NCBI GenBank assembly: GCA_964405665.1
Contig: CAYOOT010000004.1
Location: 8,053 to 72,052 of the forward strand
Source: an uncultured Bdellovibrionales bacterium
GTDB taxonomy: Bacteria; Bdellovibrionota_C; UBA2361; SZUA-149; CAZDWZ01
Direction of reading: 5' to 3'
Length of the DNA stretch: 64,000 bases
The stretch's first letter is position 1. Every line of letters starts with the position of its first letter. Below are positions 526 through 51,471 of this stretch, in pieces. The position numbers and the translations under genes were made by a program. Below the pieces are notes generated by a model. It was not told where the DNA came from and searched no databases. It saw only the letters and a list, made by a program, of their open reading frames with translations.

Positions 526-1010
526 GTCTACTCATCTTTTACTGTAATTATCAAGGACTACTAGCAAATACGTCTTTTTTTGGGAAAATCTTTAATAATT
601 TTAGCATTAAACTAAGACTTTGGTTTTTTTCAATAAATATTAAATTTGGCAGTACCTAGGAAATAATAAAGCTATCTAATAAAGTTTCTAGCAATTTATC
701 TGCTACATTAAAATTTTCATTTTTTCATACAAACATATTTTACTTCTTGTACCCAAGGGCCGGACATTTTCCTTAATTCGGCAAAGTTCTCTAAGATCTG
801 AGATATCTTCTGCAAGAAATTCCTGGATCTTTAATTAAAAACTCTTTTTTACAAATTTTGATCTGTCTAAATTATAGACACATTTGCATTAAATACTTAT
901 CTTTAAAGATAGATATTTAGGTCAAATGAGGATAAGGGAACACCAAGGGCACAAAGTTGAGTTTATTTAGAGGCCATTATATATATTTTAAGGAAATCTC
1001 ACGAGGGTAT

Positions 1011-2081: not shown

Positions 2082-2090
2082 GGATCTAAG

Positions 2091-4046: not shown

Positions 4047-4092
4047 CGGCTGGCAGAGAGAAAATACTGCTGATTAAGGCTATCTGCCAAAA

Positions 4093-4171
4093 GTAGGGGC
4101 ACCCTTTATGGGTGCCCGGTTGACCAATATATTATTTTGGAATTCCGGGCACCCATAAAGGGTGCCCCTAC
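4093..4171. repeat. Palindromic MITE-like element, family A (GTAGGGGCACCCTTTATGGGTGCCCGG ... CCGGGCACCCATAAAGGGTGCCCCTAC)
   Basis: Perfect ~27-bp terminal inverted repeats. Related copies at 21473-21548, 59889-55 and a half-copy at 42123-42150. Lies between convergent genes. Confidence 0.75.
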
Positions 4172-4453
4172 TATCATGATTTCATTAGATATTTTAATTA
4201 TAAAATTAAATGAGGCACCCTGCCTTCCAGAAGGGATTATATAAAGAAAACATTCTGGGAGGCTCAATGCGTAAATACGAAAAAAATCTTAGTTCCGAAA
4301 CAACAAAAAAATTTTCCAATCTTTTAGCAAATAATTTAAACGATCAAATGGAAGCAAGCAAAATTTGTCTGCCGACAAATGCTTACAAGATCAAAGATCC
4401 TCTCAATAAATCCAAAAATATAACTATTTTCCGATTAGATATTTTTTAATCGC

Positions 4454-5311
4454 TTAACCTTCGTAAGCAACTACATGCTGCTTGGATTCTCCTAGTCCTT
4501 CAATCCCCAGTTCAACTACATCTCCAGGTTTTAAATAGAGAGGCGGTTTAAATCCTAAACCCACTCCAGCAGGAGTTCCTGTACTGATAATATCTCCAGG
4601 AAGCAAACTCATGAACTGACTGAGATAACTGACCACATAAGAAACATTAAAAATAAAATTTTTAGTGCTGCCATTTTGTTTTAAGTCGCCATTAACTTTT
4701 AGCCACATCGCCAAATCATTAACATCTTTTATTTCATCGCGTGTTGCCAGATATGGTCCCAACGGTGCAAAGGTATCGCAGCTTTTTCCTTTGACCCATT
4801 GACCGCCTCTTTCTAATTGGAATTCTCTTTCACTATAATCATTATGCAAAATAAAACCAGCCACATAATCCATTGCTTTATCCATACTGACATAGGAAAC
4901 TTTTTTCTCAATCACTACTGCAAGCTCTACTTCCCAATCTGTTTTTTGTGAATTTTTTGGAATAACCAAATTATCGTTTGGTCCGACAATAGAAGAAGTG
5001 GCTTTAAAAAAGACCACCGGTTCTTTGGGCGGTTCTGCTCCGCTTTCTTTGGCGTGATCTTTAAAATTAAGGCCGATACAAATCAATTTACTTGGACGGC
5101 AAACTGCAGGAGCAAGGCGAACAGAATCTCCCACTTTTGCTGCAGCCGAAGCATTGGCTGCAAGCCAAGCTTTTAAGCGGCCAATTCCATTTGTTTCAAA
5201 AAATTTTTCGTTATAATCCTCCCCAAAAGCTGAAGTATCAATTTTCTGTCCATCAGCCAAAATTATTCCAGGTTTTTCTTTACCAACTTCACCGTGACGA
5301 AACAATTTCAT
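4454..5311 (-). CDS. Fumarylacetoacetate hydrolase (FAH)-family hydratase/hydrolase (2-keto-3-deoxy-sugar-acid dehydratase-like)
   Basis: 285 aa, FAH-fold C-terminal domain. Adjacent to a sugar-acid dehydratase, as in Weimberg-type pathways (XylX/KdaD are FAH family). Confidence 0.65.
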   Translation of the reverse strand: MKLFRHGEVGKEKPGIILADGQKIDTSAFGEDYNEKFFETNGIGRLKAWLAANASAAAKVGDSVRLAPAVCRPSKLICIGLNFKDHAKESGAEPPKEPVVFFKATSSIVGPNDNLVIPKNSQKTDWEVELAVVIEKKVSYVSMDKAMDYVAGFILHNDYSEREFQLERGGQWVKGKSCDTFAPLGPYLATRDEIKDVNDLAMWLKVNGDLKQNGSTKNFIFNVSYVVSYLSQFMSLLPGDIISTGTPAGVGLGFKPPLYLKPGDVVELGIEGLGESKQHVVAYEG

Positions 5312-5363
5312 AACTCACTCTCAATTAATTATTATTAAAAAATATTGAAAAAGCATCTATGTT

Positions 5364-6143
5364 TTAGCGAATATAGGACATGCCACCATCTATCGGATAA
5401 TAGCAACCTGTTAAAAAGGATGCTTCATCGGAACATAAATACAAAGCAAAGTTTGCCACTTCTTCCGGTTTTGCCATTCTGCCAATTGGAGCAGATTTAG
5501 ATAATTTTTCAAACATTTCTTGTTGATTATCCGGATAATTCTTTTTTAAATAATCATCGACAAAGGGAGTGTGCACTCTTGCCGGACAAATACAATTACA
5601 ACGAATGTGATCATTAATATAATCTTTTGCTACGGAAAGAGTCATTGTAAAAACTGCTCCTTTACTCATTGAATAAGCAAAACGATCTTGTAATCCGACA
5701 TAAGAAGCAATTGAGGCCAGATTTAAAATTACTCCGCCACCATGAGATTTCATCTTGGAAATGCCATACTTTAAACAATTATAAACTCCCTTAACATTTA
5801 CAGAAAATACCTTATCAAAATCTTCTTCGCTGGTATCTTCAGCTTTTCCGATATTGGAAATGCCGGCATTATTAACCAAAATATTTATTTTCGATGTTTT
5901 AGAACAAATTTCATCAAATACTTTTTTTACTTCAGCTTGATTACTCACATCACAACCTAGACAAAAAGCTTTTCCTCCTTTTTCTCTAATCCCCGCAGCA
6001 ACTTTTTCCCCTTCTTCTTTATTCCTTTCCACCACCACCACTTCTGCCCCATTGGTCGCAAAAACCTCAGCTATCGCTTTTCCAATCCCCGACCCCGCTC
6101 CTGTAACAACGGCAACTTTGTTATCAAGTCTAAAATTTGTCAT
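5364..6143 (-). CDS. Short-chain dehydrogenase/reductase (SDR), NAD(P)-dependent
   Basis: TGAGSGIGKAIA Rossmann motif, NNAG motif, catalytic YxxxK (YSMSK). Confidence 0.8.
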   Translation of the reverse strand: MTNFRLDNKVAVVTGAGSGIGKAIAEVFATNGAEVVVVERNKEEGEKVAAGIREKGGKAFCLGCDVSNQAEVKKVFDEICSKTSKINILVNNAGISNIGKAEDTSEEDFDKVFSVNVKGVYNCLKYGISKMKSHGGGVILNLASIASYVGLQDRFAYSMSKGAVFTMTLSVAKDYINDHIRCNCICPARVHTPFVDDYLKKNYPDNQQEMFEKLSKSAPIGRMAKPEEVANFALYLCSDEASFLTGCYYPIDGGMSYIR

Positions 6144-6350: not shown

Positions 6351-6869
6351 ATGGAAGAAAATACTGTTAATTCCGAAAGAAGTGATAAAATCAGACCTTT
6401 TGAAAGAGAATTTACGGCAAAAGAAGTTCAATCTATTTTGCGATCTTTAACAGGGAATATTGAGAAAATCGGTCTGGCCTTATTGAATTACTATGCAAGA
6501 ACTGAACTTGTCGCTGCCAGCGGCAAAGCTAAGCATCGCGGAAGAGCAAAATATAACTATCCGGATATTGTGCTTCTTTGCTGGTTATTTAGAATGAAAA
6601 AAGAAGGATTGCCGGTTAATCGTTTTCGTCGGGGTATCGATTATTTGAGAAAGCGGATGCCGAAGCTCTATGAAAATCCCAAAGACATGATTCTTTTAAC
6701 TGATGGTAAAAATCTTTTCTTAAAACACCGCATTGAAGATAAAGATGATATCGCCGAAGCTTTAACAGGTTCAAGAGCCGGACAATATGTTTGGGCTTAT
6801 TCTATTGGTACTTTGATTGAAGAAGTAGATCGAGTGATCGAAAATCACAATCGCCGATTGGTTGCGTAA
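6351..6869 (+). CDS. Hypothetical protein (172 aa)
   Basis: ORF only; basic protein with no recognisable motifs. Its stop codon TAA lies inside the terminus of the MITE at 6868. Confidence 0.35.
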   Translation: MEENTVNSERSDKIRPFEREFTAKEVQSILRSLTGNIEKIGLALLNYYARTELVAASGKAKHRGRAKYNYPDIVLLCWLFRMKKEGLPVNRFRRGIDYLRKRMPKLYENPKDMILLTDGKNLFLKHRIEDKDDIAEALTGSRAGQYVWAYSIGTLIEEVDRVIENHNRRLVA

Positions 6870-6944
6870 TTCTCCCCTTTTTCCCACGCTGCAGATATTC
6901 TAGTACTATTTATAGTTTGATGTGGGAAAAAGGGGAGAATAATT
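6868..6944. repeat. Palindromic MITE-like element, family B (TAATTCTCCCCTTTTTCGCAC ... GTGCGAAAAAGGGGAGAATTA), copy 1 (inverted relative to copies 2 and 3)
   Basis: ~77 bp with ~20-bp terminal inverted repeats. Internal sequence is the reverse complement of the copies at 17561-17636 and 39294-39372. Confidence 0.75.
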
Positions 6945-9873: not shown

Positions 9874-12800
9874 TTGGTTGACATACAAAATATTAAAGAA
9901 AAATTTGTCTGGATTCTTAGTGAAACAAAACTTCGTGCCTTTGAAGTAGAACTTTTTCTTAAAAAAAATAATAAAGATGCAGAGTGGCGCTCACTGACAG
10001 TTCTTGATGGCTTAAAAAATATTGCCAGTTCTTTAAATCAAGAAACTCGGACAAATAAACCACAACAAGCAGAACTAATTAATTCTCTGATTCTGGAAGA
10101 GATTTTAAATAATTCTGAATTCCCGGAATTAAAAGAAGAGCTTTCTCTTGTTTTTGAAGAAAGTAATCCAAACTTAAAATTAAAAAATCTCAATTACCTG
10201 CTAACTGCTTTTAGAAATTTTTCCAATGCTTTGCGTATTCAGCAAAATGTCGATTCCGTAATCAAAGAAATCATCGACGAATCGGGAAATACTTTAGAAA
10301 AAAAGCAAAAAATAGCGGAACTTATTCAATTAAGTAATAACCTGAATTTCAAACTAAAAGAGAGAAAAATAACTGACGATATCACCAGTCTTGATAACCT
10401 ATTGCTTGACCTCAACACTTCCAAAAAAACAAATTTAAAATTACCGGAACTGATTATTGTGGACGAGGCCTCCAGTTATTCCAAGCTGGAGCTGGAAATT
10501 CTCTCTCAAATATCAAAATACTGCAAAATAGAACTTTTAATTAAGGAACCTTTTTTGCAAATTGCGGAGCTCAAACAAAAATTCAGCTTTAAAGAACTGC
10601 TAAATTCCCTTCCGCCTTCTAAAAAACATTTTTGCAGTCTTATTTACAACATTAATCGCTACAAGAATCAGCTATCTTTTAAAGAAGTAAAAAACCATAA
10701 TCAAAATGCCGAAAAACTGATTGCTTATTTATTTGATTCCCAGCCGCTGGAAAATAAGGATTACAAATTTAAGCTTCCCTTGGCAATTTGGAAAAACAAA
10801 ACACCCCGCGAAGAAGTAACAAGACTGGCAAAAAGTTTGTCTAATATTTTAAAAAATAACTTGGCTAAACCCGAGGAACTTCATCTAATCTGTCTTGATC
10901 TCGATGAATACCAGCCACTATTTGAAGAAATTTTTACTGAATACCAAATTCCCTTTGTTGTTCCTCGAGGGAAAAGATTAGTAGAAACAACTTTGGGGAA
11001 TTTTTATTTAAGCTATCTTTCCTGGTTTTTTAAACCAACGCTTCTATCCCTGGAAAAACTTTGTCGTGAACCTTTATTTAAGATAAAAGATTTTGATCAG
11101 CCGGCAATTTTTAATTTTATCAGCCTTTGTAAAAATCTAGGCTGCGATAATAATATCTTCTTAGAAGACATTTGGGAAAATTATTTTTTAAGCAGCTTTA
11201 CTAAAAAAGGAGATTCTCAAAGTCTGGCGACAATCAATTGGATCAAATCCGAGTTGACAGAAAACTCAGAATTATTAAGAATTACGGGAAAAGATTTTTT
11301 TAGAAAAATCTTTAGAAAACTAAACCGTTTTCGCTGCAAATTTAAAAAGGGGCTTCTTGCTCAAAACCAAGTTCTCAAGGAAAGAGCCTTTTTGGCCGCT
11401 ACCGCCCAAAAAACAAAAATACTTTTAAAAGAATTAAGTGAAAATACTTATTTTGAAAGCTCCGACTTCAATAAATTGGGGATTGAAAAATCTGTTTTTA
11501 GTGAAAATTTGATTTTAGAAAAACTAAAATCCGAGTTTTTACCTCTGGTCTACGAAGAAGAAAAGATTATTGTTTCTGAAATGCTGGATAGCCGCGGGTT
11601 ATCGGGGAAATTGAATATTGTTTTAGCGCCAAGTTTCGAAAATTTTCCGGCAAAAAATTTAAAACAACAATTCAGCAACGAATATGATGAATTAAGTTAT
11701 AAAATTCAAGAAACAAGCGGAAACAATTCCTCGATCTATGAAAGTTATAGTCTGATTGCTAATTTGATCAGTAACTCCCGGGAGCTTGTTTTTAGTTTTT
11801 CCAGTTTAAGTAAAAATAAAGAAACTAAACCCGCTGATTTTTTATTTTTACTGGCCAAGCAAATTAAAGAAAATAAAAACTTAAATTCTCCGGAAATTTT
11901 AAAGGACTATTCCGTTGAATTTCCAAAAAAATTCAATAATAATCCTGATCAACAAAAATCAATCGAGCAATTACTTTCCAAACAAACAAATTATTTTACA
12001 GCTTACGATAGTTTTATCGGTGCAGAAAGCAGTTCGGAAAAGATCGTTAAACAATTAAATAAAAGATTCCTTCGTTCTTCTGCTGAGCCAGAGGATCAGA
12101 TTGCTCATTATTCCGTATCCTCTTTAGAAACATTTGCCGATTGTCCACAAAAATTCTTTTTTTCCTGTCTTCTCGGCTTGGAGGAGTCGATTGAGCCTGC
12201 AAAAATATTAGCGATCGAAACTGGAAACGTTGTGCATACTTGTCTTAAAAAAATTTTTAGCCTTGATTCTTATAAAACAATTACTGCAGAAAACTTCGGC
12301 CCAGCCTGTAAAGACTTGCTGGAAATCGCGGAAAGGGAATTTGAAAACAATCCTTATGATTGGAACCTTAATTACAAATGGCGGTATGCCAAAAACCTGA
12401 TTATTCAAGGTTTGGATCAAGACAGCGAAACTTCTAAAAGAGGCTATTTAAAAGCGGCACTTTTTTATAACAAACAATTAATTAAAAGTATTCCCGATCA
12501 ACTGGAATGGAATTTCGGTAAAGATTCGGAATCTCCGGCACTCAAAATAATTGAAGATCAACGAGAACTAAGGGTGCTGGGAAAAATTGATCGTATTGAC
12601 CGGACTGATCGCAATAAAAATTCTGAAGTTGCCGCAATTTGGGATTACAAAACAGGTGCAATCACTCCTTACAACAAAGTGGAAAAAGGGAAAAGTCTGC
12701 AAATTCCTTTGTATGCTTTAGCTGTTAAACAAAATATTGCGCCTTATACCTTACCTAAACGCGGAGCTATTTTTAGTTTAAAGCAAACAAACAGAAATGA

Positions 12801-15519
12801 TGAAGATTTGGCTTCATTTCATAAAGGCGTTTTAATGGAGCATTTGGCTATCAGCAGAAAGGGATCCCGCTTAGTCGAGGATTTTTCTGCAGTAGAAAAA
12901 CAATGCCAAAATGTCAAAGAAAATGTTTTAAAACTTGACGCCGCATTAAGAGCCGGAGAATTTCAACAAAAACCTGATAGCGAAGACTGCACTTATTGTA
13001 AATTTAAAAATATTTGTCAAAGAAATGAAACCTTAATTAAGATTAAAAGCAATCATCAAGAAATTAAAAAAGAACAGCGTATTTTCGAAAAAAGCGTTCT
13101 TGAATTTTTAGAGCATGAAAAAAACAATAAGGAACTTATCGCCTTGTCCGCTGAACAAGAAGCGGCCTGTGATATCAATCATAATATTGCTCTGATTGCC
13201 GCTGCCGGTTCCGGGAAAACAACCGTTCTGATCAGAAGAATCATTAAATTGATTTTGGCAGGAGAAAGTATTCTCTCAATTGTTGCAATTACCTATACAG
13301 AAAAAGCTGCAGAAGAAATCAAGCAACGACTGAGTTCGGCAATAAATACAATATTAGAATATAATTCCCTGGCGGGCCAACAAATTACTAACAGTGAAAG
13401 AGAGTTTTTAATTTCAGCAAAAAGTTTGCTGCCTTTAGCTCCGATTGGCACAATTCATTCTTTTGCCGGAATCCTTTTGGGACTTGATCCTTTGATCGCC
13501 AAAAGTCCATTTTCTTTTAAAATTGTTACTGGAGAAGAAAGAAAGAAAATTGCCCAAGCGGCCATTGAAAAAGTTCTTCAAAAAAATCCTAAAAATTTGT
13601 TAATTAAGTTATTAAACTTCGGCCTCTCCTGGAGAAATATCGAATCAGAGCTTGCTCATTTAATGCTTTTACCACGGGATTTATTTGCACTAAATAGAAC
13701 TTACAAGGATCCTCTAATATTAAAAAATATTTTAGAAAAACTGAGTACTGAAACTGAAAACCCGGAACTTAATAAACAAGGGCTGGAAATTGCAGAATGC
13801 TTTTGCGAGCTTGCAGAGTATACTTATCAAAAATACCTGGAGTTAAAGAAGGAAGAAGCTGTGCTGGATTTTGATGATTTGATAATTTCAGCAAAAGAAT
13901 GTTTAAGTAATAATAGTTCAAAACGAATTGCTTTACTTAAAGAAAGAAGCACGAAATTATTTCGACATTTCTTAGTTGATGAGTTTCAAGATACTGATTC
14001 TTATCAATGGGAAATTATTAAAAATATCGCTTCAGAAATTTTCTCTCAGAAAAAAACAAAACCCAAGGAAAATTTAAGGCAAACCATTTTAATTGTCGGC
14101 GATCCTCAACAGGCAATTTATGGATTTAGAGGAGGAGATTCCAGTATTTTTCAACAAGCAATTTCCGAGTTTAAATCAGTAGGCGGTAAATTGCTTTTTC
14201 TGAGAAATAATTATCGTTCGGAAGAAAACCTGATTAATTTTTACAATTCTTACTTTAGTGAGCTGTTTTCCTGCGATTTTTTTGAAGATGCTAGTTCTCG
14301 GGTCAGCACAGCCACTTCTTATGAAGAAATGTATACTTCGCAAAAAAGCGCCGATACTCAAATTAACAATGTCTCATTTCTTTTAAAAGATCCTGAAATG
14401 AATATTGACGAAGCCGCGTATCTTGCTAGTTTTTTAAAAAAATATCTTGCAGAAAACCCTGCTACAGAAAATATTGCTATTCTTTGTCGAAAAAATGATC
14501 ATCTGGAAAAGATTGCCAGTCAATTGGATTTACAAAATATTGATTATAATATCACCCAAAGTAATCGCACTCTGGAATTAAATGAAATTAAGCAATTAGA
14601 AAATTTGCTTAAGTATTTATATAATCCCCAAGATAGTATTGCCTTAGTCGGTCTTTTGCGTTCAACAATTTTTGGTTTTAGCGATCAAGACTTGTTCTTA
14701 TTTTATCAAGAACTGCAGGATTCTTGGGAAATTAAAGAAGAATATCTGAAAACGGCAATATTTCTTAATGCAGCCCAAAAACTGGCTCATTGGAAAAATC
14801 TTAACAAATATCTTAGCGCGTCCGATCTTTTAAAACATATTATCCAAGAACAAAATCTGGAAGATGTTTATCTACAAGCCAATGAAACCGCTGCTTATAA
14901 AAATATCACAATGTTTATCGATACACTTTCTCGTGAAGGAAAAAATGCTCTAGTTGGACCCGCCGTTAGCGATGTCTTAAGTTGGTTAGAATTAAAAAGC
15001 AGTAGTAATTTTCAACTTTTTGTCAATAAAGAAAATCAGAAAATTTCCTTAATGACAATTCACAATGCCAAAGGTTTAGAATTTGATTTAGTAATTCTTG
15101 CCTATATGAATTATCGTTTGCCACCGGAACATGATTTTGTAATTGGTGAATACGCAACAAACAAATTGTTGGGAATAAAAGTTGAAGATGATGAGGATAG
15201 TTTTAGCAGAGCAAAAACTCCTCTACAAAATCTGATTGAGCAATCTTCAACAGCCTTAATTTGTGCTGAAGAAAGACGTTTGTTTTATGTCGCTTGCACC
15301 AGAGCAAAGAAAAGTTTACTTTTCTCTTTTGATCAAAGGAAAGGATTTTTAGGTAATCAAAAAAAGGTAAAGGCACTTTCGCTAAGTAATCGAAAAACAA
15401 ATGCTTTTTTGAAATCCAACCCCTACTATTGGTTTGAACAGCTTCTAGACTATGAAAATCCCTCCTTTACCTTAGCTAACCCCTTGAAAAAACTTAATTT
15501 ACCTGTCATCGAATTATAA
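9874..15519 (+). CDS. Single-chain AddB::AddA-like helicase-nuclease (N-terminal AddB-like inactivated-helicase + RecB-family nuclease with 4-Cys Fe-S site; C-terminal UvrD/AddA-like SF1 helicase without nuclease domain), 1881 aa
   Basis: N-terminal half: IIVDEAS, nuclease motifs DRIDR and IWDYKTG, Cys pattern DCPQKFFFSC ... CTYCKFKNIC (C-x2-C-x5-C as in AddB). C-terminal half: UvrD motifs AAAGSGKTT (I), FLVDEFQDTD (II), IVGDPQQAIYGFRGGD (III), NYRS (IV), TIHNAKGLEFD (V), RRLFYVACTRAK (VI). Continuous ORF across the junction. Start is TTG/GTG-type and uncertain. Confidence 0.6.
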   Translation: MVDIQNIKEKFVWILSETKLRAFEVELFLKKNNKDAEWRSLTVLDGLKNIASSLNQETRTNKPQQAELINSLILEEILNNSEFPELKEELSLVFEESNPNLKLKNLNYLLTAFRNFSNALRIQQNVDSVIKEIIDESGNTLEKKQKIAELIQLSNNLNFKLKERKITDDITSLDNLLLDLNTSKKTNLKLPELIIVDEASSYSKLELEILSQISKYCKIELLIKEPFLQIAELKQKFSFKELLNSLPPSKKHFCSLIYNINRYKNQLSFKEVKNHNQNAEKLIAYLFDSQPLENKDYKFKLPLAIWKNKTPREEVTRLAKSLSNILKNNLAKPEELHLICLDLDEYQPLFEEIFTEYQIPFVVPRGKRLVETTLGNFYLSYLSWFFKPTLLSLEKLCREPLFKIKDFDQPAIFNFISLCKNLGCDNNIFLEDIWENYFLSSFTKKGDSQSLATINWIKSELTENSELLRITGKDFFRKIFRKLNRFRCKFKKGLLAQNQVLKERAFLAATAQKTKILLKELSENTYFESSDFNKLGIEKSVFSENLILEKLKSEFLPLVYEEEKIIVSEMLDSRGLSGKLNIVLAPSFENFPAKNLKQQFSNEYDELSYKIQETSGNNSSIYESYSLIANLISNSRELVFSFSSLSKNKETKPADFLFLLAKQIKENKNLNSPEILKDYSVEFPKKFNNNPDQQKSIEQLLSKQTNYFTAYDSFIGAESSSEKIVKQLNKRFLRSSAEPEDQIAHYSVSSLETFADCPQKFFFSCLLGLEESIEPAKILAIETGNVVHTCLKKIFSLDSYKTITAENFGPACKDLLEIAEREFENNPYDWNLNYKWRYAKNLIIQGLDQDSETSKRGYLKAALFYNKQLIKSIPDQLEWNFGKDSESPALKIIEDQRELRVLGKIDRIDRTDRNKNSEVAAIWDYKTGAITPYNKVEKGKSLQIPLYALAVKQNIAPYTLPKRGAIFSLKQTNRNDEDLASFHKGVLMEHLAISRKGSRLVEDFSAVEKQCQNVKENVLKLDAALRAGEFQQKPDSEDCTYCKFKNICQRNETLIKIKSNHQEIKKEQRIFEKSVLEFLEHEKNNKELIALSAEQEAACDINHNIALIAAAGSGKTTVLIRRIIKLILAGESILSIVAITYTEKAAEEIKQRLSSAINTILEYNSLAGQQITNSEREFLISAKSLLPLAPIGTIHSFAGILLGLDPLIAKSPFSFKIVTGEERKKIAQAAIEKVLQKNPKNLLIKLLNFGLSWRNIESELAHLMLLPRDLFALNRTYKDPLILKNILEKLSTETENPELNKQGLEIAECFCELAEYTYQKYLELKKEEAVLDFDDLIISAKECLSNNSSKRIALLKERSTKLFRHFLVDEFQDTDSYQWEIIKNIASEIFSQKKTKPKENLRQTILIVGDPQQAIYGFRGGDSSIFQQAISEFKSVGGKLLFLRNNYRSEENLINFYNSYFSELFSCDFFEDASSRVSTATSYEEMYTSQKSADTQINNVSFLLKDPEMNIDEAAYLASFLKKYLAENPATENIAILCRKNDHLEKIASQLDLQNIDYNITQSNRTLELNEIKQLENLLKYLYNPQDSIALVGLLRSTIFGFSDQDLFLFYQELQDSWEIKEEYLKTAIFLNAAQKLAHWKNLNKYLSASDLLKHIIQEQNLEDVYLQANETAAYKNITMFIDTLSREGKNALVGPAVSDVLSWLELKSSSNFQLFVNKENQKISLMTIHNAKGLEFDLVILAYMNYRLPPEHDFVIGEYATNKLLGIKVEDDEDSFSRAKTPLQNLIEQSSTALICAEERRLFYVACTRAKKSLLFSFDQRKGFLGNQKKVKALSLSNRKTNAFLKSNPYYWFEQLLDYENPSFTLANPLKKLNLPVIEL

Positions 15520-15604
15520 AGGTATCTTTTTTATTTTTTATCACCATAACAGAAGTAGAATGTAATCTGAATGGGATTATTATTTATAGATTATGGAGAA
15601 CACT

Positions 15605-15982
15605 ATGTTTACAAAAATTAAAAAAATATACAGTTCAGTTTGCTTAAAAAGTTTGGAATTAGTCCATGCACACTCTAGCTTATTAATGTTTTTAATAGGT
15701 GTTGGATTTTTGAATGCTGGAATGAATGAATTAGCTCATGCTCAGGTTCCCACTGGGGCAACTGGACCACTGATCGCCAGTGCCAGAGCAACACTAGCAT
15801 GTGGTTTCATACTTTCCTATCTGGAAGGCGGGTTTGGTGCATTGCTTGCCGCCGGTGCAGGAATTGGAGCAGTAGTCGCTTCCGCTCTTGGTGGGTTTAA
15901 AGCAGCATGGTGTTTAGTTGTAGTTTCTGTCGGAGCTTTTATTCTAAGATCATACATCACTTTATTTAATGGAGTATGTTAA
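15605..15982 (+). CDS. VirB2/TrbC-like T-pilin paralogue 1 (small 2-TM secreted membrane protein)
   Basis: ORF 15593..15982; ATG at 15605 preferred (GGAG 6 nt upstream). Signal peptide ending AHA|Q, Gly-rich start, conserved Cys then GGFGALL...SALGGF...AWCLVVVSVGAFIL, C-terminal Cys. Pattern parallels Agrobacterium VirB2 (ASA|QSAGGG...ICTFILGPFG...). Confidence 0.5.
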   Translation: MFTKIKKIYSSVCLKSLELVHAHSSLLMFLIGVGFLNAGMNELAHAQVPTGATGPLIASARATLACGFILSYLEGGFGALLAAGAGIGAVVASALGGFKAAWCLVVVSVGAFILRSYITLFNGVC

Positions 15983-15995
15983 TAAAGGTTTGACC

Positions 15996-16340
15996 ATGTC
16001 AATTAAATCAAAATGGCTTCATAATTTTTTATTTTTTGTTACCGTTTTAATCTTATTAATCGTATCGCAAGAATTTGCTTTGGCTCAAGCTGCCGGTGGC
16101 GGTGGCACAGAAGGCTATGATGATAGTAAATTTGGCGTAGCCTGTATTAGTGCTCTTAATTATCTGCAAGGAGGCTTTGGAGCATTGCTTTCAGCAATAG
16201 CAGGCTTTGCTGCAGTAATCGCTTCCGCAATGGGAGGATTTAGAATGGCTTGGGGCCTCCTTATCGTATCTATCGGATCGTTTATCCTGCAAGAATATAT
16301 GGAAATTTGGTTTGGAACATCAGCTTGTGTAGGTAGTTAA
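15996..16340 (+). CDS. VirB2/TrbC-like T-pilin paralogue 2
   Basis: ORF 15969..16340; start MSIKSKW at 15996 preferred (AAAGG upstream). Signal ALA|QAAGGGGTEG; core ACISALNYLQGGFGALLSAIAGFAAVIASAMGGF; C-terminal Cys. Confidence 0.5.
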   Translation: MSIKSKWLHNFLFFVTVLILLIVSQEFALAQAAGGGGTEGYDDSKFGVACISALNYLQGGFGALLSAIAGFAAVIASAMGGFRMAWGLLIVSIGSFILQEYMEIWFGTSACVGS

Positions 16341-16702
16341 TGAATAAGATTGCTGTTAAGATAATTTTTATTGCAGAATCCCTTCAGGAATTCACAAAAA
16401 AAAATTCCGATCTAATTCTTATTTTTCTTGGCATATTAATTCTCAGTGGTGGTTTGCTTGATGTTTCTTTCGCACAAACCGGCGGAGAAGTTTTTAAAAG
16501 TGCCGCTTCCAATATCGCTTGCAAAGTAATAACCGGGAAATTTGGCGCAATGTTAACTATTTTTTCCGGAATATTTGCCATTGTTGCAGCAGCTACTGGT
16601 TCCTATAAAGGCGCCTGGGCCTTGCTCTTTGTTTCTATTGGAGCTTTTATTTTTAAAGAATTCGTCTCGATTTTATTCAGCGGGTCGATAGCATGTACAT
16701 AA
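16340..16702 (+). CDS. VirB2/TrbC-like T-pilin paralogue 3
   Basis: Start overlaps stop of paralogue 2 (TAATG). Signal SFA|QTGGEV; core IACKVITGKFGAMLTIFSGIFAIVAAATG; C-terminal IACT. Confidence 0.5.
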   Translation: MNKIAVKIIFIAESLQEFTKKNSDLILIFLGILILSGGLLDVSFAQTGGEVFKSAASNIACKVITGKFGAMLTIFSGIFAIVAAATGSYKGAWALLFVSIGAFIFKEFVSILFSGSIACT

Positions 16703-17196
16703 AGAAAGATAAATATTTTTTTGAAATTTTACTGTTAATGTCAATATTAAGTTTATTGCCTTCAATAGCTTATGCTCAAGAAGGAGGAGGAACTGCTGCT
16801 GCTGGATTTGATACCAGTGTAATTGATTGGGCGATTGAAGAACTATGTGGACACATCACAGGAAATCTTGGTGGCTTACTGGTAACTGTAGCAGCTTTCG
16901 GCGCAATAGTTTCAGCAGCTCTTGGTTCATTTAGAGTAACTTATAGTGCAATAATTGTTGCCGTTGGTGCTTATGCGATCAGTTCAATTGAAAGTTTGTA
17001 TTTTCCTAGCGCGGCAACTGTTTGTGCCTCAGGAGCTTCTGCCGATGTTGACGGAGGAGATGCCGGACCCGCTACAGGAGGACCAGTTGCACCCCCGAGA
17101 TTGTCTACTTCTGCTCAACAAACGGCTGTTTCAGAGAGAAATACTTTATATAAAGACAAAGTTGAAGAAAACGATCCTTTTGCAAAATTAGATTAA
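16693..17196 (+). CDS. VirB2/TrbC-like T-pilin paralogue 4 with Gly/Pro-rich C-terminal extension
   Basis: Start overlaps end of paralogue 3. Signal AYA|QEGGGTAAAG; core ELCGHITGNLGGLLVTVAAFGAIVSAALGSF; extra ~55-aa tail ASGASADVDGGDAGPATGGPVAPP... Confidence 0.45.
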   Translation: MYIKKDKYFFEILLLMSILSLLPSIAYAQEGGGTAAAGFDTSVIDWAIEELCGHITGNLGGLLVTVAAFGAIVSAALGSFRVTYSAIIVAVGAYAISSIESLYFPSAATVCASGASADVDGGDAGPATGGPVAPPRLSTSAQQTAVSERNTLYKDKVEENDPFAKLD

Positions 17197-17200
17197 ATCA

Positions 17201-17563
17201 ATGTCCAGGTATAATTTTAAATTTTTTATTGGCGCTACTCTTAGTTTATTTTCCTTTCTTTTTGTATTCCTAAATTTCGCCTTAGCTGATGCCTTTGAAG
17301 AACTGGGAGCTTATTCCAGTCAAGGCTTGGCGGGAGGAAGTGCAGGTTTTGCTGATGGTGCATTCAAAGAAGCAATTTGCGATATTGTTGGTTTAATGGG
17401 TAATGAGTTGGGGGGATTTTTAACTGCTTCAGCTTTATTAATGGCTTTGGTCTATGCCGCTGTTGGTGGCTTATCGCAAACCACAGCGGCAGTTATTGTT
17501 GCTGTTTCCGCTTTTTCTTTAACTTCGATTGTTAGTTTGTATTTCGGGAGTTTTAGTTGCTAA
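17201..17563 (+). CDS. VirB2/TrbC-like T-pilin paralogue 5 (most divergent)
   Basis: Signal-like N-terminus ending ALADA; core AICDIVGLMGNELGGFLTASALLMALVYAAVGG; C-terminal SFSC. Stop TAA is supplied by the family-B MITE terminus. Confidence 0.45.
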   Translation: MSRYNFKFFIGATLSLFSFLFVFLNFALADAFEELGAYSSQGLAGGSAGFADGAFKEAICDIVGLMGNELGGFLTASALLMALVYAAVGGLSQTTAAVIVAVSAFSLTSIVSLYFGSFSC

Positions 17564-17636
17564 TTCTCCCCTTTTTCGCACATCAAACTATAAATAGTAC
17601 TAGAATATATGCAGCGTGCGAAAAAGGGGAGAATTA
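17561..17636. repeat. Palindromic MITE-like element, family B, copy 2
   Basis: TAATTCTCCCCTTTTTCGCACATCAAACTATAAATAGTACTAGAATATATGCAGCGTGCGAAAAAGGGGAGAATTA. Its two TAA termini are the stop codons of the + strand pilin gene and the - strand SNF2 gene. Confidence 0.8.
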
Positions 17637-20105
17637 CCTCACCGCCTTAATAAACTCCTCTCTTTCTATCTCTAAAGACTCTTCCAAAATTCCTTCCATT
17701 TTTAATACTTCATTTTGAAACCTTGTCTTGCGATTCAAATTCCTGGCAATCAATTCATCAACCTTGCTCGCCTGTAAAGAAATAATTCTAACCGTTCCTG
17801 TTTGGCCAATCCTATGCAAACGATCAATTGATTGCATCCAATGCTCGGCATTCCATGTTTTATCGAGATAAATTGCAGTTTGAGCGGCGGTCAGCGTGAT
17901 TCCCACACCACCGGCAGCAGGAACAGCTACTAATATTTTTACTTCATTGGAATTTTGAAATTTTTTTATTGTTTCATCCCGTTCTTTTGTGGAAACTTCT
18001 CCGGAAAATGCCTTGGCTCCATACTTTTCGTAACGTTTTGTCAGTTCCCGAATATTTCCCAAATAATTTGTCCAGATTACTAGCTTTTCTTCTCTTTCAG
18101 AAACAATATCTTCCACTAATAAATCCAATTCTTTGAATTTTGCCGGTTCTCCTTTCCAAGTTTCATCAATCAATCTGGGGTTAGAGGCCACCTGAACGGC
18201 TCTTAAATATTCTTCCAGAATATTGTTAATTTCTCGGATAAAAGTTTTACCATTGGTAGAAGTAACCCTTAACAAAAGCTCTTTCCTGATTTCTTCGTAG
18301 CGCTTGCGTTGTTCTCCAGTTAAATCAATATCTCTGGTAATAAATATTTTCTCCGGTAAATCCACAACATCTTCTTTTTTTCTGCGCAGTAAAACCTCAT
18401 GCAGCCGAGAAATAGTTTCTTTAATCATTTGCGGCTTAAACTTTTTTACAGCAAAATCGCTATATTTTGTTCCCAGTTCCGCTACTTGTTCCAACCAACG
18501 ATAGTAACTTTTTCCAAATCTCTCTCCACCATCTAACAAATACATTTGTGACCAGATATCAGAAATATCTTTCGGCGTGGGAGTTCCACTAAGTAATACT
18601 CGGCGCTGACAAAGCGGCGCAAGCTGAGAAATAGCCTGAAAAGTCTGAGCATTGGGACTTTTTACGCGTTGTGATTCGTCAAGGCATAACAAAGTGTTTT
18701 TGGTTTGCAGTAAATCTATTATCTCCGGTAAAACATAATCCAGTCTGATTGCTTCGTAATTAATTACCAGACCATTTATTTTATAATCGCCCCAGGAAAG
18801 CTTTTTCAAAAAACTGATTTTCTCCTTTTTTTCTTGGGGCAACATCAACAGACGTAATTCTGGAAACCAATTTGCTGCTTCTCGCAACCAATTCCTGGTT
18901 AAGGAATTAGGACAAATTACCAAGAGAAAATCGCTTTGTGCTGTTTTTTGTAGGGCAACAAAAGAGCTAAGCACACTTAATGTTTTTCCTAATCCCATAT
19001 CGTCTCCCAAAAACGAAAATGGAGTTTCCAATAGCCATTTCATTGCCACTCGTTGATGAGGGTATAATCTTTGTTCTAAGCTTTGATCTGAGAAAATAGA
19101 CTGATTCAAATTGACATCTTTTAGTGCATTAAAATGCTTCGATCTCTCTAAAAGCAATTGTTGCGCTTCTCTTTCCTTGGCTGAAATTTCGGCAAAAGCT
19201 TCACCTCTTTGGCGGATCATTTCTTGCACTTTGTCACTTAACCAAAGCTTCCATTTCAAATCTTTTAGTCTTTGCACAACTTTAAACAAAGTATTTTGAT
19301 CAAACATTTTTGCAAGATTTTTTCGTTGATCAAAGGAAGAAATGTTAGGGAAAATTTCTCTTAGCTGTGTTGTCGTATAATTTTTTAAGCAAAAATATGT
19401 TTCACTGCCGCTTTCATCGAAATAGTCTAAAACTTCAATGAAGGGACAAAGTAAAGCTGCACTTAAATTATTTTCATTAATAATTGTTTCCTGGTTTAAA
19501 ATCTCCGCTCTTAATTTGGCACTGGCACTTAAAATTTTACCAGCAGTGGCTTCTACTGCAAAAAGTAAATTCAGATCTCTTAGTTTTTTTAAAAGTGCAG
19601 TTAATTCTTCCGTAGGTAGAAAATAAGATTTTTCCGTTTTGATATAATGTGCTCCCGGAATTTTTTCTAAAATTTTTCTGGCCTTAGAGCTAAAACTAGG
19701 GAGTGCCCGCAATGACGTCTGTTTGAAATCCAATCTGATTACTAAATCCAGCCTTAAATTTTTAAGATCCTCTTCAGCAACAGAAAATGGATTTTCTTTA
19801 ACTCGAGAAAGAATCTCTTCTAAATCAACTTTTTCCGATTTTAGTTCAATCGGCAGATCTTCAGCAGAAAAACTATAAACTAAATTATCCCTGCTAAATG
19901 ATTTGGAATTTTCCAAATAAGAACAATTTTTAAGCTGAACAGTCCAATGCTTTCTTTCTTTATTAAAACGGGCTGAGGGTATTTTTTTTATTTCCTGTAC
20001 TTTGTCAGGGGAATAAGAAAATTCAACTATTAACTGATCTCCAGAAAGAGACACTTGACCCAGAGGCTGATTATATGATTTCTCTTGTCTATGATTAATA
20101 CCCAT
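17634..20105 (-). CDS. SNF2/RapA-family DEAD-like helicase (uncharacterised ~330-aa N-terminal region + SNF2 ATPase + helicase-C)
   Basis: LGDDMGLGKT (Walker A), LCLDESQRVKSP (DExx box), helicase-C block ...GGVGITLTAAQTAIYLDKTWN...QSIDRLHRIGQ (motif VI). Confidence 0.8.
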   Translation of the reverse strand: MGINHRQEKSYNQPLGQVSLSGDQLIVEFSYSPDKVQEIKKIPSARFNKERKHWTVQLKNCSYLENSKSFSRDNLVYSFSAEDLPIELKSEKVDLEEILSRVKENPFSVAEEDLKNLRLDLVIRLDFKQTSLRALPSFSSKARKILEKIPGAHYIKTEKSYFLPTEELTALLKKLRDLNLLFAVEATAGKILSASAKLRAEILNQETIINENNLSAALLCPFIEVLDYFDESGSETYFCLKNYTTTQLREIFPNISSFDQRKNLAKMFDQNTLFKVVQRLKDLKWKLWLSDKVQEMIRQRGEAFAEISAKEREAQQLLLERSKHFNALKDVNLNQSIFSDQSLEQRLYPHQRVAMKWLLETPFSFLGDDMGLGKTLSVLSSFVALQKTAQSDFLLVICPNSLTRNWLREAANWFPELRLLMLPQEKKEKISFLKKLSWGDYKINGLVINYEAIRLDYVLPEIIDLLQTKNTLLCLDESQRVKSPNAQTFQAISQLAPLCQRRVLLSGTPTPKDISDIWSQMYLLDGGERFGKSYYRWLEQVAELGTKYSDFAVKKFKPQMIKETISRLHEVLLRRKKEDVVDLPEKIFITRDIDLTGEQRKRYEEIRKELLLRVTSTNGKTFIREINNILEEYLRAVQVASNPRLIDETWKGEPAKFKELDLLVEDIVSEREEKLVIWTNYLGNIRELTKRYEKYGAKAFSGEVSTKERDETIKKFQNSNEVKILVAVPAAGGVGITLTAAQTAIYLDKTWNAEHWMQSIDRLHRIGQTGTVRIISLQASKVDELIARNLNRKTRFQNEVLKMEGILEESLEIEREEFIKAVR

Positions 20106-20243
20106 CGTACTTTAGATTTTTAGATTAACTTTTGTTTACTAAGGTTTAATAAAACTCTTTGGCGATAGGTATGATGCTTTATTATTGGTTTGTGCTTTGC
20201 ACAAACTATGTAGTTTTTATCCACAACAAAATACATATTTTTC

Positions 20244-21476
20244 ATGCCAAATAATGATGTTGATTATTTAATTATCGGTGCCGGTATCATTGGCTTAAGT
20301 CTGGCTAAGACTTTACGCCAAAAAGACCCCAGTTGTAAAATCGTTATCGTCGAAAAAGAACCACATGTTGCCGAACACGCTTCCGGAAGAAATAGTGGTG
20401 TTTTGCATGCCGGTTTTTATTATAGTGCCGATACTCTCAAAGCAAAACTTTCTATCGCCGGCAATAAGGCACTTCGAGATTATTGTAAAACAAGAAATCT
20501 TCCTCTTAAAGAAACTGGAAAATTAGTTGTCGCTACTTCCGAAAAAGAAGTGGAACAACTCTATGAACTGGAAAAAAGGGGGAAATCAAATGGCTCGCAG
20601 GTTGAAATTATTTCTGAAGAACAGGCTAGAAAAATTGAACCTAATATTAAAACTTGCGGCCAAGCACTCTGGTCTCCTTTAACGGCGACAGTGGATCCCA
20701 AAGCGATTTGTAATTCGCTGCACAAAGAATTGGCTGCTGATGGTGTTAAATTTCTTTTCAATCAGACCTTTCAAAAATGCCAAAACAATTTAGTAAAAAC
20801 TAGTCAAAACTATTATTGGGCAAATCACATTATTAATTGCGCCGGTCTGTATGCCGATAAAATTGCCCAAGGTTTTGGTTTTGGAACAAATTATACAATT
20901 ATTCCTTTTAAGGGTCTTTATTTAAAATATGTAAAAAATAGCACTGATATTCGAACAAATATTTATCCTGTTCCCGATTTGAAACAAACATTTCTGGGAG
21001 TACATTTTACAAAAACCGTAAATGACATAATAAAAATCGGCCCCACGGCCATTCCAGCTTTTTGGAGAGAGAACTATAATTTTCATCAAAGATTTAAATT
21101 GGATGAATTCTTAACAATTCTTTTTTACGAAGCTAAACTTTTTATCAATAATTCTTTTGGTTTTCGTTCTTTAGCTTTTGAAGAAATGAAAAAATATTCA
21201 AAAAGTTATTTGATTCGCCTCTCTTCCAAACTGGCACAAAATGTTGACCCTGATGGTTTTGGCGAATTTGCTCCACCGGGAATCAGGGCGCAATTAATCA
21301 ATAAACAAACTCTGCAATTGGTAATGGATTTTATGATCGAAGGAGACGAAAGAAGTACGCATATTCTAAATGCAATTTCTCCCGGGTTTACTTGTAGTTT
21401 GCCTTTTGCGGAGTATGTGGTGGATAATTATATTTTAGAGAGATCCGCGTCAAAGAAAGAAGTTGTTGTAATGTAG
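20244..21476 (+). CDS. FAD-dependent L-2-hydroxyglutarate oxidase/dehydrogenase family protein
   Basis: DYLIIGAGIIGLSLA dinucleotide fold; SGRNSGVLHAGFYYSADTLKAKL closely parallels E. coli LhgO (GHNSGVIHAGVYYTPGSLKAQ). Stop TAG lies in the MITE terminus GTAGGGG. Confidence 0.65.
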   Translation: MPNNDVDYLIIGAGIIGLSLAKTLRQKDPSCKIVIVEKEPHVAEHASGRNSGVLHAGFYYSADTLKAKLSIAGNKALRDYCKTRNLPLKETGKLVVATSEKEVEQLYELEKRGKSNGSQVEIISEEQARKIEPNIKTCGQALWSPLTATVDPKAICNSLHKELAADGVKFLFNQTFQKCQNNLVKTSQNYYWANHIINCAGLYADKIAQGFGFGTNYTIIPFKGLYLKYVKNSTDIRTNIYPVPDLKQTFLGVHFTKTVNDIIKIGPTAIPAFWRENYNFHQRFKLDEFLTILFYEAKLFINNSFGFRSLAFEEMKKYSKSYLIRLSSKLAQNVDPDGFGEFAPPGIRAQLINKQTLQLVMDFMIEGDERSTHILNAISPGFTCSLPFAEYVVDNYILERSASKKEVVVM

Positions 21477-29381: not shown

Positions 29382-30506
29382 TCACACCATCTCCAAATTC
29401 GCCCTGGGAATTAAAACTTCTTCCTTATTTTCCAATCTGATTTTTGCGACCCGCACTTCCGCTCCGGTGGCAATTACTTGTGGTTCATGCGGCAGATCCA
29501 ATACTTCAGCAAACATTCCAAAATAAGGAACTCTGATTACCCGGACTTTGGAACCAACATTAAGTAAACCAATTTCATCTTTTGTTTGATCTCTTAATGA
29601 AGAATCGTTATGGGGAATAATTAATTCCGGACGCATTGCGCCGGCACGAATTTGAGTAGCACCACTAACGGAAGCAAATTTCCCGTTAAATTTCTTAGCA
29701 AGTTCGGTAATTCTTTGAGAAATTGCAAGCGATCCGAAGCCTTCCGTAATAATTAAAGTAAAGGGAAGAACTTCATCTCCGGTAATGGAAACTCCGATTT
29801 CATAACCTAAAAATTCATGCAGAGTATCTGCCTCAATGGAACCGGTAATTACAGCACTGATTTCTTGTTCAGCGCAAAATTTTAGTGCTGCTTTGGAAAA
29901 ACCCATTCCCCCAATTAAAATTTTATTTTTTAGTTTTCCTTGATATTTTTCCAAATCCGTCTTTTCAATTAAATCAGTAACCGCTTTTTCCAAAACAAAA
30001 ACCTCACCACTTTTTTCAGAGCCCACACCAAATATCCCTTGAATAAAAGTTCCTGTTGTTTGAATGCTCACTGTTTTTTCTTCCTCCAACTCCAAGACTT
30101 CTCCCCCAATATAAGCATTAACTGACAATTGTTCCGACTTTTGTCTGATTCCCAAGTGGGCATTGGATTCCGTAAAAAATTCCACCTTTCCTGCAGAGCT
30201 GGATTTTAATTCCTCTTTGAACCAGGAAAAAAGCCCGGATACTTCGCAGAGAAGATCTCCTACTTTGACTTCGTCTCCCACCTTCACTTTCATTCCTTCT
30301 AGCACTCGCTCTACATCATAACCTAAACGATCGGCTATTCGGATAATATCAAGTTCTCCGGGAAGTTCCGCAGAAAGAACGATGGTAGAAGATTGGACCT
30401 GCTCACCTTTTTTAACCAGGACTTTACCTTTTAAAGGAAGTTCTCTTGTTTTAAGAATTGTTTTATAGGCCGATATTTCAAGTCCTGGAGTGTATGCTTT
30501 ACTCAT
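29382..30506 (-). CDS. Hypothetical protein of operon 29382-36143 (375 aa from MSKAYTPG start; possible barrel-sandwich/lipoyl-like segment KVKVGDEVKVGDLLCE)
   Basis: ORF 29382..30551. The internal ATG at 30504-30506 overlaps the upstream gene stop by 8 nt (ATGAGTAA), suggesting coupling. Confidence 0.45.
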   Translation of the reverse strand: MSKAYTPGLEISAYKTILKTRELPLKGKVLVKKGEQVQSSTIVLSAELPGELDIIRIADRLGYDVERVLEGMKVKVGDEVKVGDLLCEVSGLFSWFKEELKSSSAGKVEFFTESNAHLGIRQKSEQLSVNAYIGGEVLELEEEKTVSIQTTGTFIQGIFGVGSEKSGEVFVLEKAVTDLIEKTDLEKYQGKLKNKILIGGMGFSKAALKFCAEQEISAVITGSIEADTLHEFLGYEIGVSITGDEVLPFTLIITEGFGSLAISQRITELAKKFNGKFASVSGATQIRAGAMRPELIIPHNDSSLRDQTKDEIGLLNVGSKVRVIRVPYFGMFAEVLDLPHEPQVIATGAEVRVAKIRLENKEEVLIPRANLEMV

Positions 30507-32322: not shown

Positions 32323-32326
32323 CAGA

Positions 32327-33922: not shown

Positions 33923-34040
33923 TCAGAATTATTCCGCAATCGAGGCGTTAAGTTTGTCGAAAAGCGGAGTGTATACTTCGAAACATGAGCATTCTCGACA
34001 AACTTAACAACAAAGAGTGCGGAAAATTGTGAACGTTTAA

Positions 34041-39296: not shown

Positions 39297-39372
39297 TTCT
39301 CCTTTTTTTTCGCATATCACTATAAGTATTACTGGAATTTATGCAGCGTGCGAATAAGGGGAGAATTAATTA
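39294..39372. repeat. Palindromic MITE-like element, family B, copy 3
   Basis: TAATTCTCC(T)9CGCATATCACTATAAGTATTACTGGAATTTATGCAGCGTGCGAATAAGGGGAGAATTAATT. Both TAA termini serve as stop codons of convergent flanking genes (cinA + and 39366..39839 -). Confidence 0.75.
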
Positions 39373-39839
39373 TAGGCTTGGATTTTTGGCTCCACAGTTT
39401 CTTCTTCGGGGGCTTTTAATAAACTACTAAAAGAACTATTTTTCTTGATATTTCCTTTGAAATAAATTGCTCCTTTTTGTTCTGCTTCCCCTTCCGGAAC
39501 CTCTATACCCTGACTGATCATTTCATCTTCCAAAGGATGTAAAGTTTTTAGACTACAAACATGTTTACCAAAAAAACTTTCTGTCGATCGCTGAAAACCT
39601 CTACAAAAAAGAGATTGGTACCAAGTTAATTTGGGATTTTCATACCGGGTTTCCACATTGTTTGTTTCTCCGGTCATTTCATCATAACTGGAAGTATATA
39701 CTTTGGTCTCTCCTTGTGCTTCCTTTTCCCGACTACTTGCCTTAAAATACATAATCATATTCAAAGCAAATATCGCTCCCCCAATAGTCATGATAAAAAT
39801 ATGTTGGGGAGTAAGATCCGTTGCTAATTTTAACTTCAT
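39366..39839 (-). CDS. Hypothetical N-terminally anchored protein (157 aa)
   Basis: ORF with TM IFIMTIGGAIFALNMIMYF, acidic C-terminus. Confidence 0.35.
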   Translation of the reverse strand: MKLKLATDLTPQHIFIMTIGGAIFALNMIMYFKASSREKEAQGETKVYTSSYDEMTGETNNVETRYENPKLTWYQSLFCRGFQRSTESFFGKHVCSLKTLHPLEDEMISQGIEVPEGEAEQKGAIYFKGNIKKNSSFSSLLKAPEEETVEPKIQAYN

Positions 39840-51378: not shown

Positions 51379-51471
51379 ATACAATTATAACAATTTTGGA
51401 ATAATATAGCATATCTTTTAAATAATAATATTCTGTTATATAGTTTAATTCTTTAATAAACGGAGTTAATC

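Follow-up and report, generated by a model that had tools for sequence, protein, structure and literature searches.

A tight array of five paralogous genes

The DNA examined here is a stretch of 64,000 nucleotides, hereafter the window, from contig CAYOOT010000004.1 of an uncultured Bdellovibrionales bacterium (assembly GCA_964405665.1), and our subject is a tandem array of five small genes on its forward strand, which are listed with two other features in the table below. The initial annotation had described these genes as paralogs of a single architecture that encode VirB2/TrbC-like pilins of a type IV secretion system (T4SS). The array itself proved to be real, in that the open reading frames (ORFs) are tightly packed, the encoded proteins share their anatomy, and the pairwise sequence identities among them range from 26% to 43%. 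The overlaps between neighboring ORFs measure 14, 1, and 10 nt, and a gap of 4 nt separates paralogs 4 and 5, a packing typical of a translationally coupled operon. On balance, we consider the region to be best explained as an operon of five paralogs that diverged anciently and are translated together.

All five proteins start with a hydrophobic leader that runs to a predicted cleavage site of the AxA type, which is AHA/Q, ALA/Q, SFA/Q, AYA/Q, and ALA/D in paralogs 1 to 5, respectively (the slash marks the predicted point of cleavage). The leader is followed by a stretch that is mostly rich in glycine, a cysteine, a G-x-(F or L)-G motif, and two hydrophobic segments with a short connecting loop, which is basic in paralogs 1 to 4 and contains no basic residue in paralog 5 of this genome. 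A second cysteine follows directly after the second hydrophobic segment in each paralog, and the spacing between the 2 cysteines is 59, 61, 58, 59, and 60 residues in paralogs 1 to 5. Paralog 1 may serve as the example, with a long conserved leader (MFTKIK...), the AHA/Q site, Cys70, the sequence GGFG, the first transmembrane (TM) segment, a GGFK loop, the second TM segment, and the C-terminal Cys129. The probable start codon of this gene is the ATG at position 15605, which is preceded by GGAG 8 nt upstream and which gives the same MFTKIK start as in the family members P0002 and P0063. The cleavage sites and the topology were deduced from sequence rules, without SignalP or TMHMM.

Paralog 4 extends 56 residues beyond the second cysteine, in a low-complexity tail rich in alanine, glycine, serine, and proline that finishes with a conserved DPFxxL end, and the earlier statement that every paralog carries a cysteine within its last 1 to 5 residues therefore does not hold for this protein. 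Type-4 tails are generally rich in alanine, glycine, serine, threonine, and proline, and the DPFxxL end is found in most orthologs (also in P0034, P0043, and P0048); it might act in docking or in processing.

Coordinates of the array genes, the partner gene c1, and the palindromic element within the window
Feature	Position	Strand	Description
Paralog 1 (type 1)	15593..15982	+	129 aa; probable true start 15605 gives 125 aa
Paralog 2 (type 2)	15969..16340	+	123 aa; ALA/QAAGGGG; DDSKFGVAC signature; Cys59 and Cys120
Paralog 3 (type 3)	16340..16702	+	120 aa; SFA/QTGGEVFK signature; Cys61 and Cys119
Paralog 4 (type 4)	16693..17196	+	167 aa; AYA/QEGGG; FDTxVIDWAIxELCGHI signature; Cys52 and Cys111
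Paralog 5 (type 5)	17201..17563	+	120 aa; GFAxGxFxEAICD signature; Cys60 and C-terminal Cys120
Palindromic element	17561..17636		21-bp perfect inverted repeat with 34-nt loop, between the array and the convergent SNF2 gene
c1	39366..39839	-	157 aa; N-terminal KLxxDxPxQH; one TM segment; 22 kb from the array

Remote homology to TrbC/VirB2 pilins

A profile built from the five window proteins retrieved 64 relatives, nearly all of which are unnamed. In a Pfam scan of 41 ORFs of the window, including the five paralogs and the 31 largest other ORFs of at least 100 aa, the TrbC family (PF04956) matched paralog 4 with 17.7 bits (E-value 0.0042) and paralog 2 with 13.5 bits (E-value 0.089), and it did not match paralogs 1, 3, and 5. 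None of the five reaches the gathering cut-off of 27.9 bits, and the window proteins are thus not members of PF04956 as currently defined. Across 65 members of the family, TrbC was the only Pfam family that recurred, with matches to 14 of the 65 at an E-value of at most 0.1 and a best E-value of 3.4e-6. The F-type pilin family TraA (PF05513) matched no member in the Pfam scans, and NCBIfam gave no match for the cysteine-less members found in T4SS gene clusters (see below).

Eight authentic VirB2/TrbC proteins from plasmids of the MPF_T class, each encoded by a gene flanked by VirB1- and VirB3-type genes, were aligned for comparison with the family alignment. Hhalign aligned the two with a probability of 87.4%, an E-value of 3.7e-6, and a score of 40.6 over 71 columns, in a register that brings together the AxA/Q site, the G-x-FG motif, the first TM segment, the loop, and the second TM segment. 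Reversed alignments scored 23.2 and 21.7, and none of 60 shuffles that preserved the hydrophobic layout reached 40.6 (mean 15.6, maximum 33.9). Full-column shuffles gave one artefactual score of 134 over 17 columns, while the other 59 had a median of 10. An AlphaFold2 model with a pLDDT of 78 consists of a leader helix, a signal TM segment, and a three-helix hairpin, which is the arrangement of a leader and a three-helix hairpin described for conjugative pilins (PMC12037004).

The resemblance to TrbC/VirB2 proteins such as Agrobacterium VirB2 and RP4 TrbC extends to the long leader with an A-x-A/Q site, the glycine-rich mature N-terminus, the G-x-FG motif before the first TM segment, the two TM helices with a short basic loop, and a mature length of about 70 to 80 residues. 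In contrast to these pilins, the array proteins contain a conserved cysteine pair instead of, or besides, head-to-tail cyclization; they are encoded as five fixed paralogs accompanied by the gene c1, with no adjoining VirB1, VirB3, or VirB4 gene; and the T4SS-linked relatives of the family are found in F-like rather than MPF_T clusters.

A different reading is that the five are unrelated proteins with two TM segments, such as holins, bacteriocin-immunity proteins, or other membrane peptides, with a likeness to VirB2 that stems from hydrophobic composition. This would agree with the Pfam scores below the cut-off, with a helical hairpin that is generic as a fold, and with the PDB, where a sequence search with the family profile gave nothing at an E-value of up to 10 and fold searches gave nothing specific. 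We regard it as very improbable: searches for a better match elsewhere revealed no other recurrent Pfam family and only two chance-level matches in PHROGs (E-value 0.06), neither of which is a holin; the neighboring genes are chromosomal housekeeping genes without any phage context; the hhalign score exceeds those of the reversed and layout-preserving shuffled controls; and relatives of the five are located in T4SS clusters as the only pilin candidate. As judged by these comparisons, the five proteins are shown to be remote homologs of TrbC/VirB2. The identity proposed in the initial annotation hence stands as a remote homology, carried by the 14 TrbC matches among 65 members, the hhalign comparison, and the relatives embedded in T4SS clusters, but does not extend to membership in the Pfam family, for which the best score was 17.7 bits against the required 27.9.

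An exhaustive HMMER search with the 65-sequence alignment identified 635 family representatives, counted at 50% identity, at an E-value of at most 1e-3, and 537 at an E-value of at most 1e-10, which indicates a compact family that stays separate from the large canonical TrbC family. In a scan of one genome per species, 23 loci were found, most of which are labeled as uncultured Bdellovibrionota, Bdellovibrionales, or Oligoflexia, and the remaining loci carry the broader labels Deltaproteobacteria, Proteobacteria/Pseudomonadota, or "bacterium". Searches of NCBIfam, PHROGs, and plasmids (tblastn) with the window proteins gave nothing meaningful, and a metagenome scan with the type-4 alignment returned short contigs only. 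We lean towards an unannotated branch of the T4SS pilin superfamily (TrbC/VirB2/TraA-like) that is restricted to the Bdellovibrionota as the best explanation of the family. It comprises two branches, one with the cysteine pair, to which the window proteins belong, and one without cysteines.

Two family domains were present in a single protein of 209 to 453 aa in 10 of 202 representatives (P0065, P0066, P0067, P0072, P0079, P0082, P0108, P0158, P0176, and P0183). These may be true tandem fusions or gene calls that were merged over overlapping array genes.

Ordered types, a cysteine pair, and a partner gene

Outside the window, family genes form arrays with 5, 6, or 7 members, for instance in GCA_046328905.1, or stand as occasional singletons. 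About 15 other genomes contain orthologs of all five genes arranged in this order, and each paralog in the window is most similar to the gene at the same position in the other arrays. For example, paralog 3 scored 133 bits against position 3 of the array at locus L002 and at most 71 bits against the other positions. All genes in the complete arrays were assigned to a type, which covered five arrays with 5 members (the window included), eight with 6 members, and one with 7 members, and the order was type 1, extra type-1- or type-2-like copy where present, and types 2, 3, 4, and 5 in every one of them. Each type has its own signature, and the positional orthologs are 45% to 69% identical in distantly related genomes, whereas the paralogs within a genome are only 26% to 43% identical.

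The single 7-gene array, in GCA_964509425.1 (L005 9016-12357), has a triplication of type 1 at its head. The same genome contains two more family genes on the opposite strand, located about 6 kb away on the other side of an RND efflux operon (L005 18776-19931), as well as two dispersed singletons with the cysteine pair on other contigs (L009 and L013).

Tandem arrays of VirB2 homologs have precedents in host-associated alphaproteobacteria. In Anaplasma, the virB2 genes occur in 8 to 15 copies that vary in number and sequence even between strains, and the arrays are separate from some of the T4SS machinery yet located beside virB4-2 (PMC3556328), while the tandem trwL copies of Bartonella lie inside the trw locus (PMC2610397). 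A variable repertoire of this kind, in which the paralogs would be alternative versions of a surface antigen or host-range pilin that are differentially expressed or have diversified to escape recognition or to bind distinct targets, could account for the lineage-specific extra type-1- or type-2-like copies that have given rise to arrays of 6 and 7 members and to dispersed singletons. We nevertheless consider such a repertoire improbable here: each type retains its own signature and is more similar to its positional orthologs than to its paralogs, the order of types 1 to 5 is invariant, and the overlapping or abutting genes imply joint expression. The Anaplasma and Bartonella arrays contain hypervariable regions, whereas the present arrays, from environmental Bdellovibrionota, form a fixed orthologous set that has a partner gene of its own and no T4SS gene in its vicinity. 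The parallel to the Anaplasmataceae drawn in the initial annotation is thus a superficial one.

An analogy in layout is provided by the pseudopilins GspG, GspH, GspI, GspJ, and GspK of type II secretion systems and by type IV pili, which consist of one major and four minor paralogs encoded by consecutive, co-expressed genes of conserved order. The proposed one-major-plus-four-minor arrangement would be shared, but the fold and the processing differ, and the prepilin-peptidase motif G/F(M)xxxE is absent from all five sequences, so that no homology to pseudopilins or type IV pilins is implied. To our knowledge, all characterized T4SS pili are built from one pilin of the VirB2/TraA type, sometimes with an unrelated VirB5 tip protein.

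The cysteine pair also sets the arrays apart. In an HMM-anchored count of 214 family proteins, 150 contained both cysteines, 63 contained neither, and one contained a single cysteine. Both residues are located 28 to 31 residues from the loop of the hairpin, one on each side, and in the model they would thus lie at equal height in the helical hairpin, facing the periplasm. The symmetric placement and the all-or-none co-occurrence make an intramolecular disulfide the best reading of the pair. The earlier suggestion of such a bond has thereby gained strong, if indirect, support from the near-perfect co-occurrence in the 214 members, while the bond itself stays putative.

A covalent linkage joining the N-terminus of the hairpin to its C-terminus is required for pilus biogenesis with TrhA of the IncHI H-pilus and with TrbC of RP4 (PMC12037004). 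In those proteins, the link is a peptide bond made after C-terminal trimming, whereas the cysteines of the array proteins are placed such that a disulfide would provide an equivalent link. Neither a gene for a cyclase nor one for a TraF-type peptidase was seen in the vicinity of the arrays, and the literature searched contained no report of a disulfide staple in T4SS pilins. Where the closure of a pilin is covalent, we know of no case in which it is anything other than a peptide bond.

Clustering of the genes adjacent to the arrays identified one recurrent neighbor from outside the family, here called c1, whose product has a length of 125 to 160 aa, a single TM segment, and an invariant motif, NPxLxWY..FCRGxQRS...C....HP. 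The c1 gene was located directly upstream of the array on the same strand at eight loci, directly downstream on the opposite strand at three, and nearby at one; examples are L001 11825-12268, L002 11934-12371, and L023 8255-8665. With an HMM, c1 was detected at 13 array loci and not at any locus with cysteine-less members or T4SS genes. Searches of Pfam, NCBIfam, and the PDB with c1 gave no match.

Surroundings, secretion machinery, and proposed assembly

The window consists of ordinary chromosomal DNA with a G+C content of about 35%. The gene upstream of the array (9874-15519, forward strand) has a TTG start codon as called by the ORF finder and encodes a protein of 1881 aa in which a PD-(D/E)XK nuclease is joined to a UvrD helicase, as an AddAB-like single-chain fusion. 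Orthologs of 1970 to 2110 aa are encoded directly upstream of the arrays in L002, L005, and L011, a sign that the chromosomal synteny is conserved, and the order of polyprenyl synthase, NTP transferase, giant helicase, and array recurs as a housekeeping context of the arrays. Downstream of the array is a convergent gene for an SNF2 helicase. Other genes in the window that were named by Pfam include those for a sigma-54 response regulator, sugar-nucleotide and polysaccharide proteins, IlvD, ParB, CinA, bactofilin, PLD, and a YdbH-like protein. Searches of the window for tRNA genes and Rfam families gave no match, and a scan for promoters and terminators gave no more sites than in shuffled sequence.

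The element between the array and the SNF2 gene had been labeled a miniature inverted-repeat transposable element. It is rather a 21-bp inverted repeat that resembles repetitive extragenic palindromes or terminators, and its predicted hairpin has a folding energy of -33 kcal/mol (z = -6.5). The arm sequence TAATTCTCCCCTTTTTCGCAC has 5 matches in the window, compared with 0.01 expected by chance, which include a second complete copy at 6867-6942 (arms at 6867 and 6922) and a single arm at 39348-39368. Every match is located at a convergent gene junction or at the 3' end of a gene, including those just after the array and after c1, and the copy beside the array is probably a bidirectional terminator.

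At a greater distance from the array, the window contains a six-gene operon on the reverse strand (29382-35854) that encodes a PF13941 "MutL" protein (an actin-like ATPase), a DUF6754 protein, and three proteins without a Pfam match. Four large ORFs likewise have no Pfam family (49708-51384, 52643-54193, 54303-57431, and 57933-58976).

In two different metagenome-assembled genomes (MAGs), the genes for FlgI and FlgH of the flagellar P- and L-rings and four other shared genes are located 3 to 9 kb from family genes, in one case the L023 array (14968-20481) and in the other the L028 singleton (51-6059), which has the cysteine pair. This proximity probably reflects lineage synteny.

The members of the cysteine-less branch, which match the array HMM with E-values of about 1e-26, are associated with secretion genes. 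In L038, L054, L026, and the contig of P0057, a cysteine-less gene follows genes for a TraL-like protein, TraE, TraK, TrbI, TraV, a TraC/VirB4 protein of 913 aa, an SH3 protein, and an M23 peptidase, and it is the only family gene and the only pilin candidate in these F-like clusters. At L016, the cysteine-less gene is located directly after the gene for a type IV coupling protein of 790 aa, and the pair stands alone among housekeeping genes. These proteins share with the array proteins the MFTKIK... leader style and the core EG-x-FGAL...GxxK...VGAFILR, but they differ from them in that they are encoded by a single-copy gene that is located after the M23 peptidase in a TraE-TraK-TrbI-TraV-TraC cluster or after the coupling protein, without any c1, and in that they lack cysteines and end in TFFNxQxI with a short tail. 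Paralog 1 is the closest of the five to the cysteine-less pilins, with 42% identity to P0063 in L038.

The F-like core spans L038 1-10393 and L041 5222-13665 and was also seen in L054, L056, and L058; the copies in L041, L056, and L058 have no adjacent pilin gene. The lone pair of coupling protein and pilin in L016 and these pilin-less cores indicate that T4SS genes are scattered in these bacteria. The VirB4 proteins of the F-like system are 68% to 100% identical over the best 120 clusters, and each cluster is located in a different housekeeping context, which points to vertical inheritance as a chromosomal machine and away from a typical conjugative element. No relaxase gene was seen in the cores. 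These data suggest that uncultured Bdellovibrionota-like bacteria inherit an F-like T4SS vertically and that it is possibly non-conjugative.

Taken as a whole, the data are in our view best explained, with somewhat more than even confidence, by a set of T4SS-pilin-like proteins that are stapled by disulfides and that consist of one major and four minor subunits. The pre-protein would be inserted through Sec/YidC and cut at the AxA/Q site, and the mature protein would form a helical hairpin in the inner membrane with both ends in the periplasm. An intramolecular disulfide would then tie the N-proximal helix to the C-terminus, as a redox equivalent of the head-to-tail cyclization of TrbC and TrhA. 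Type 1 would be the major subunit, as it is the nearest to T4SS pilins, has retained the long leader, and is the type found duplicated or dispersed elsewhere. Types 2 to 5 would be the fixed minor subunits of a fiber or membrane platform, which they would initiate, cap, or anchor. That this assembly is a hetero-oligomer is suggested by the fixed, ordered, and co-translated set, and c1 may be a dedicated assembly or redox accessory. Assembly would most likely be performed by a T4SS encoded elsewhere in the genome, in line with the scattered T4SS genes in related genomes, and the possibility that the array encodes the pilins of such a scattered T4SS takes about half of the overall weight that we assign.

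In addition to the Pfam and PDB results given above, several observations weigh against this interpretation. The Pfam scan of 41 ORFs of the window revealed no T4SS family, and a tblastn search of the whole window with 28 proteins from related T4SS loci matched the five paralogs only, which bears out the earlier remark that no T4SS gene is present within the 64 kb. Nor were there any T4SS genes within 10 kb on either side of about 15 arrays, and none of the 120 closest VirB4 matches could be placed on a contig with an array. In the scan of species representatives, the MAGs with arrays had no cysteine-less copy and the 3 MAGs with a cysteine-less copy had no array. On this evidence, the array lineage may lack a T4SS altogether. 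In the same MAG series, three VirB4 contexts revealed no shared assembly and no shared near-identical neighbors. The cysteine co-occurrence is a raw count without correction for phylogeny, the AlphaFold2 model of c1, made from a 4-sequence alignment, had a pLDDT of 46.6 and was unusable, and the disulfide bond, the site of cleavage, the membrane topology, and the division into major and minor subunits are all inferred.

Several of these observations agree with an exaptation, in which descendants of T4SS pilins together with c1 form a T4SS-independent hetero-oligomer of the inner membrane or periplasm, such as a membrane-stabilizing or envelope-spanning complex, after the loss of the secretion machine. 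Besides the lack of T4SS genes near the arrays and in the window and the genome scan, in which arrays and cysteine-less, T4SS-type pilins never shared a MAG, this is in agreement with the restriction of c1 to the arrays, with its absence from all T4SS loci, and with the vertically inherited housekeeping synteny in which the arrays are embedded. However, the sister lineage scatters its T4SS genes (L016; L041, L056, and L058), so that distance from the machinery proves little, and type 1 keeps the long pilin-type leader and the AxA/Q site. We regard the exaptation as a possible but less probable explanation than a stapled set of major and minor pilins.

It can be suggested, tentatively, that the T4SS-pilin fold has here been turned into a fixed five-subunit fiber or envelope complex, with a disulfide in place of cyclization and with c1 as its own accessory. 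Five distinct, ordered subunits of the pilin fold with a co-varying cysteine pair and a dedicated partner would amount to an architecture not seen before for this fold, and the array would parallel, by convergence, the logic of major and minor pilins in type II secretion and type IV pili. If true, the complex would be the first T4SS pilus that is hetero-oligomeric and has dedicated minor pilins sharing the pilin fold, or else a machine of uncultured, possibly predatory Bdellovibrionota that works independently of a T4SS. The work also reveals an unannotated protein family with about 635 representatives and an F-like T4SS that is chromosomal and strikingly conserved across more than 120 clusters, the biology of which possibly involves contact with prey.

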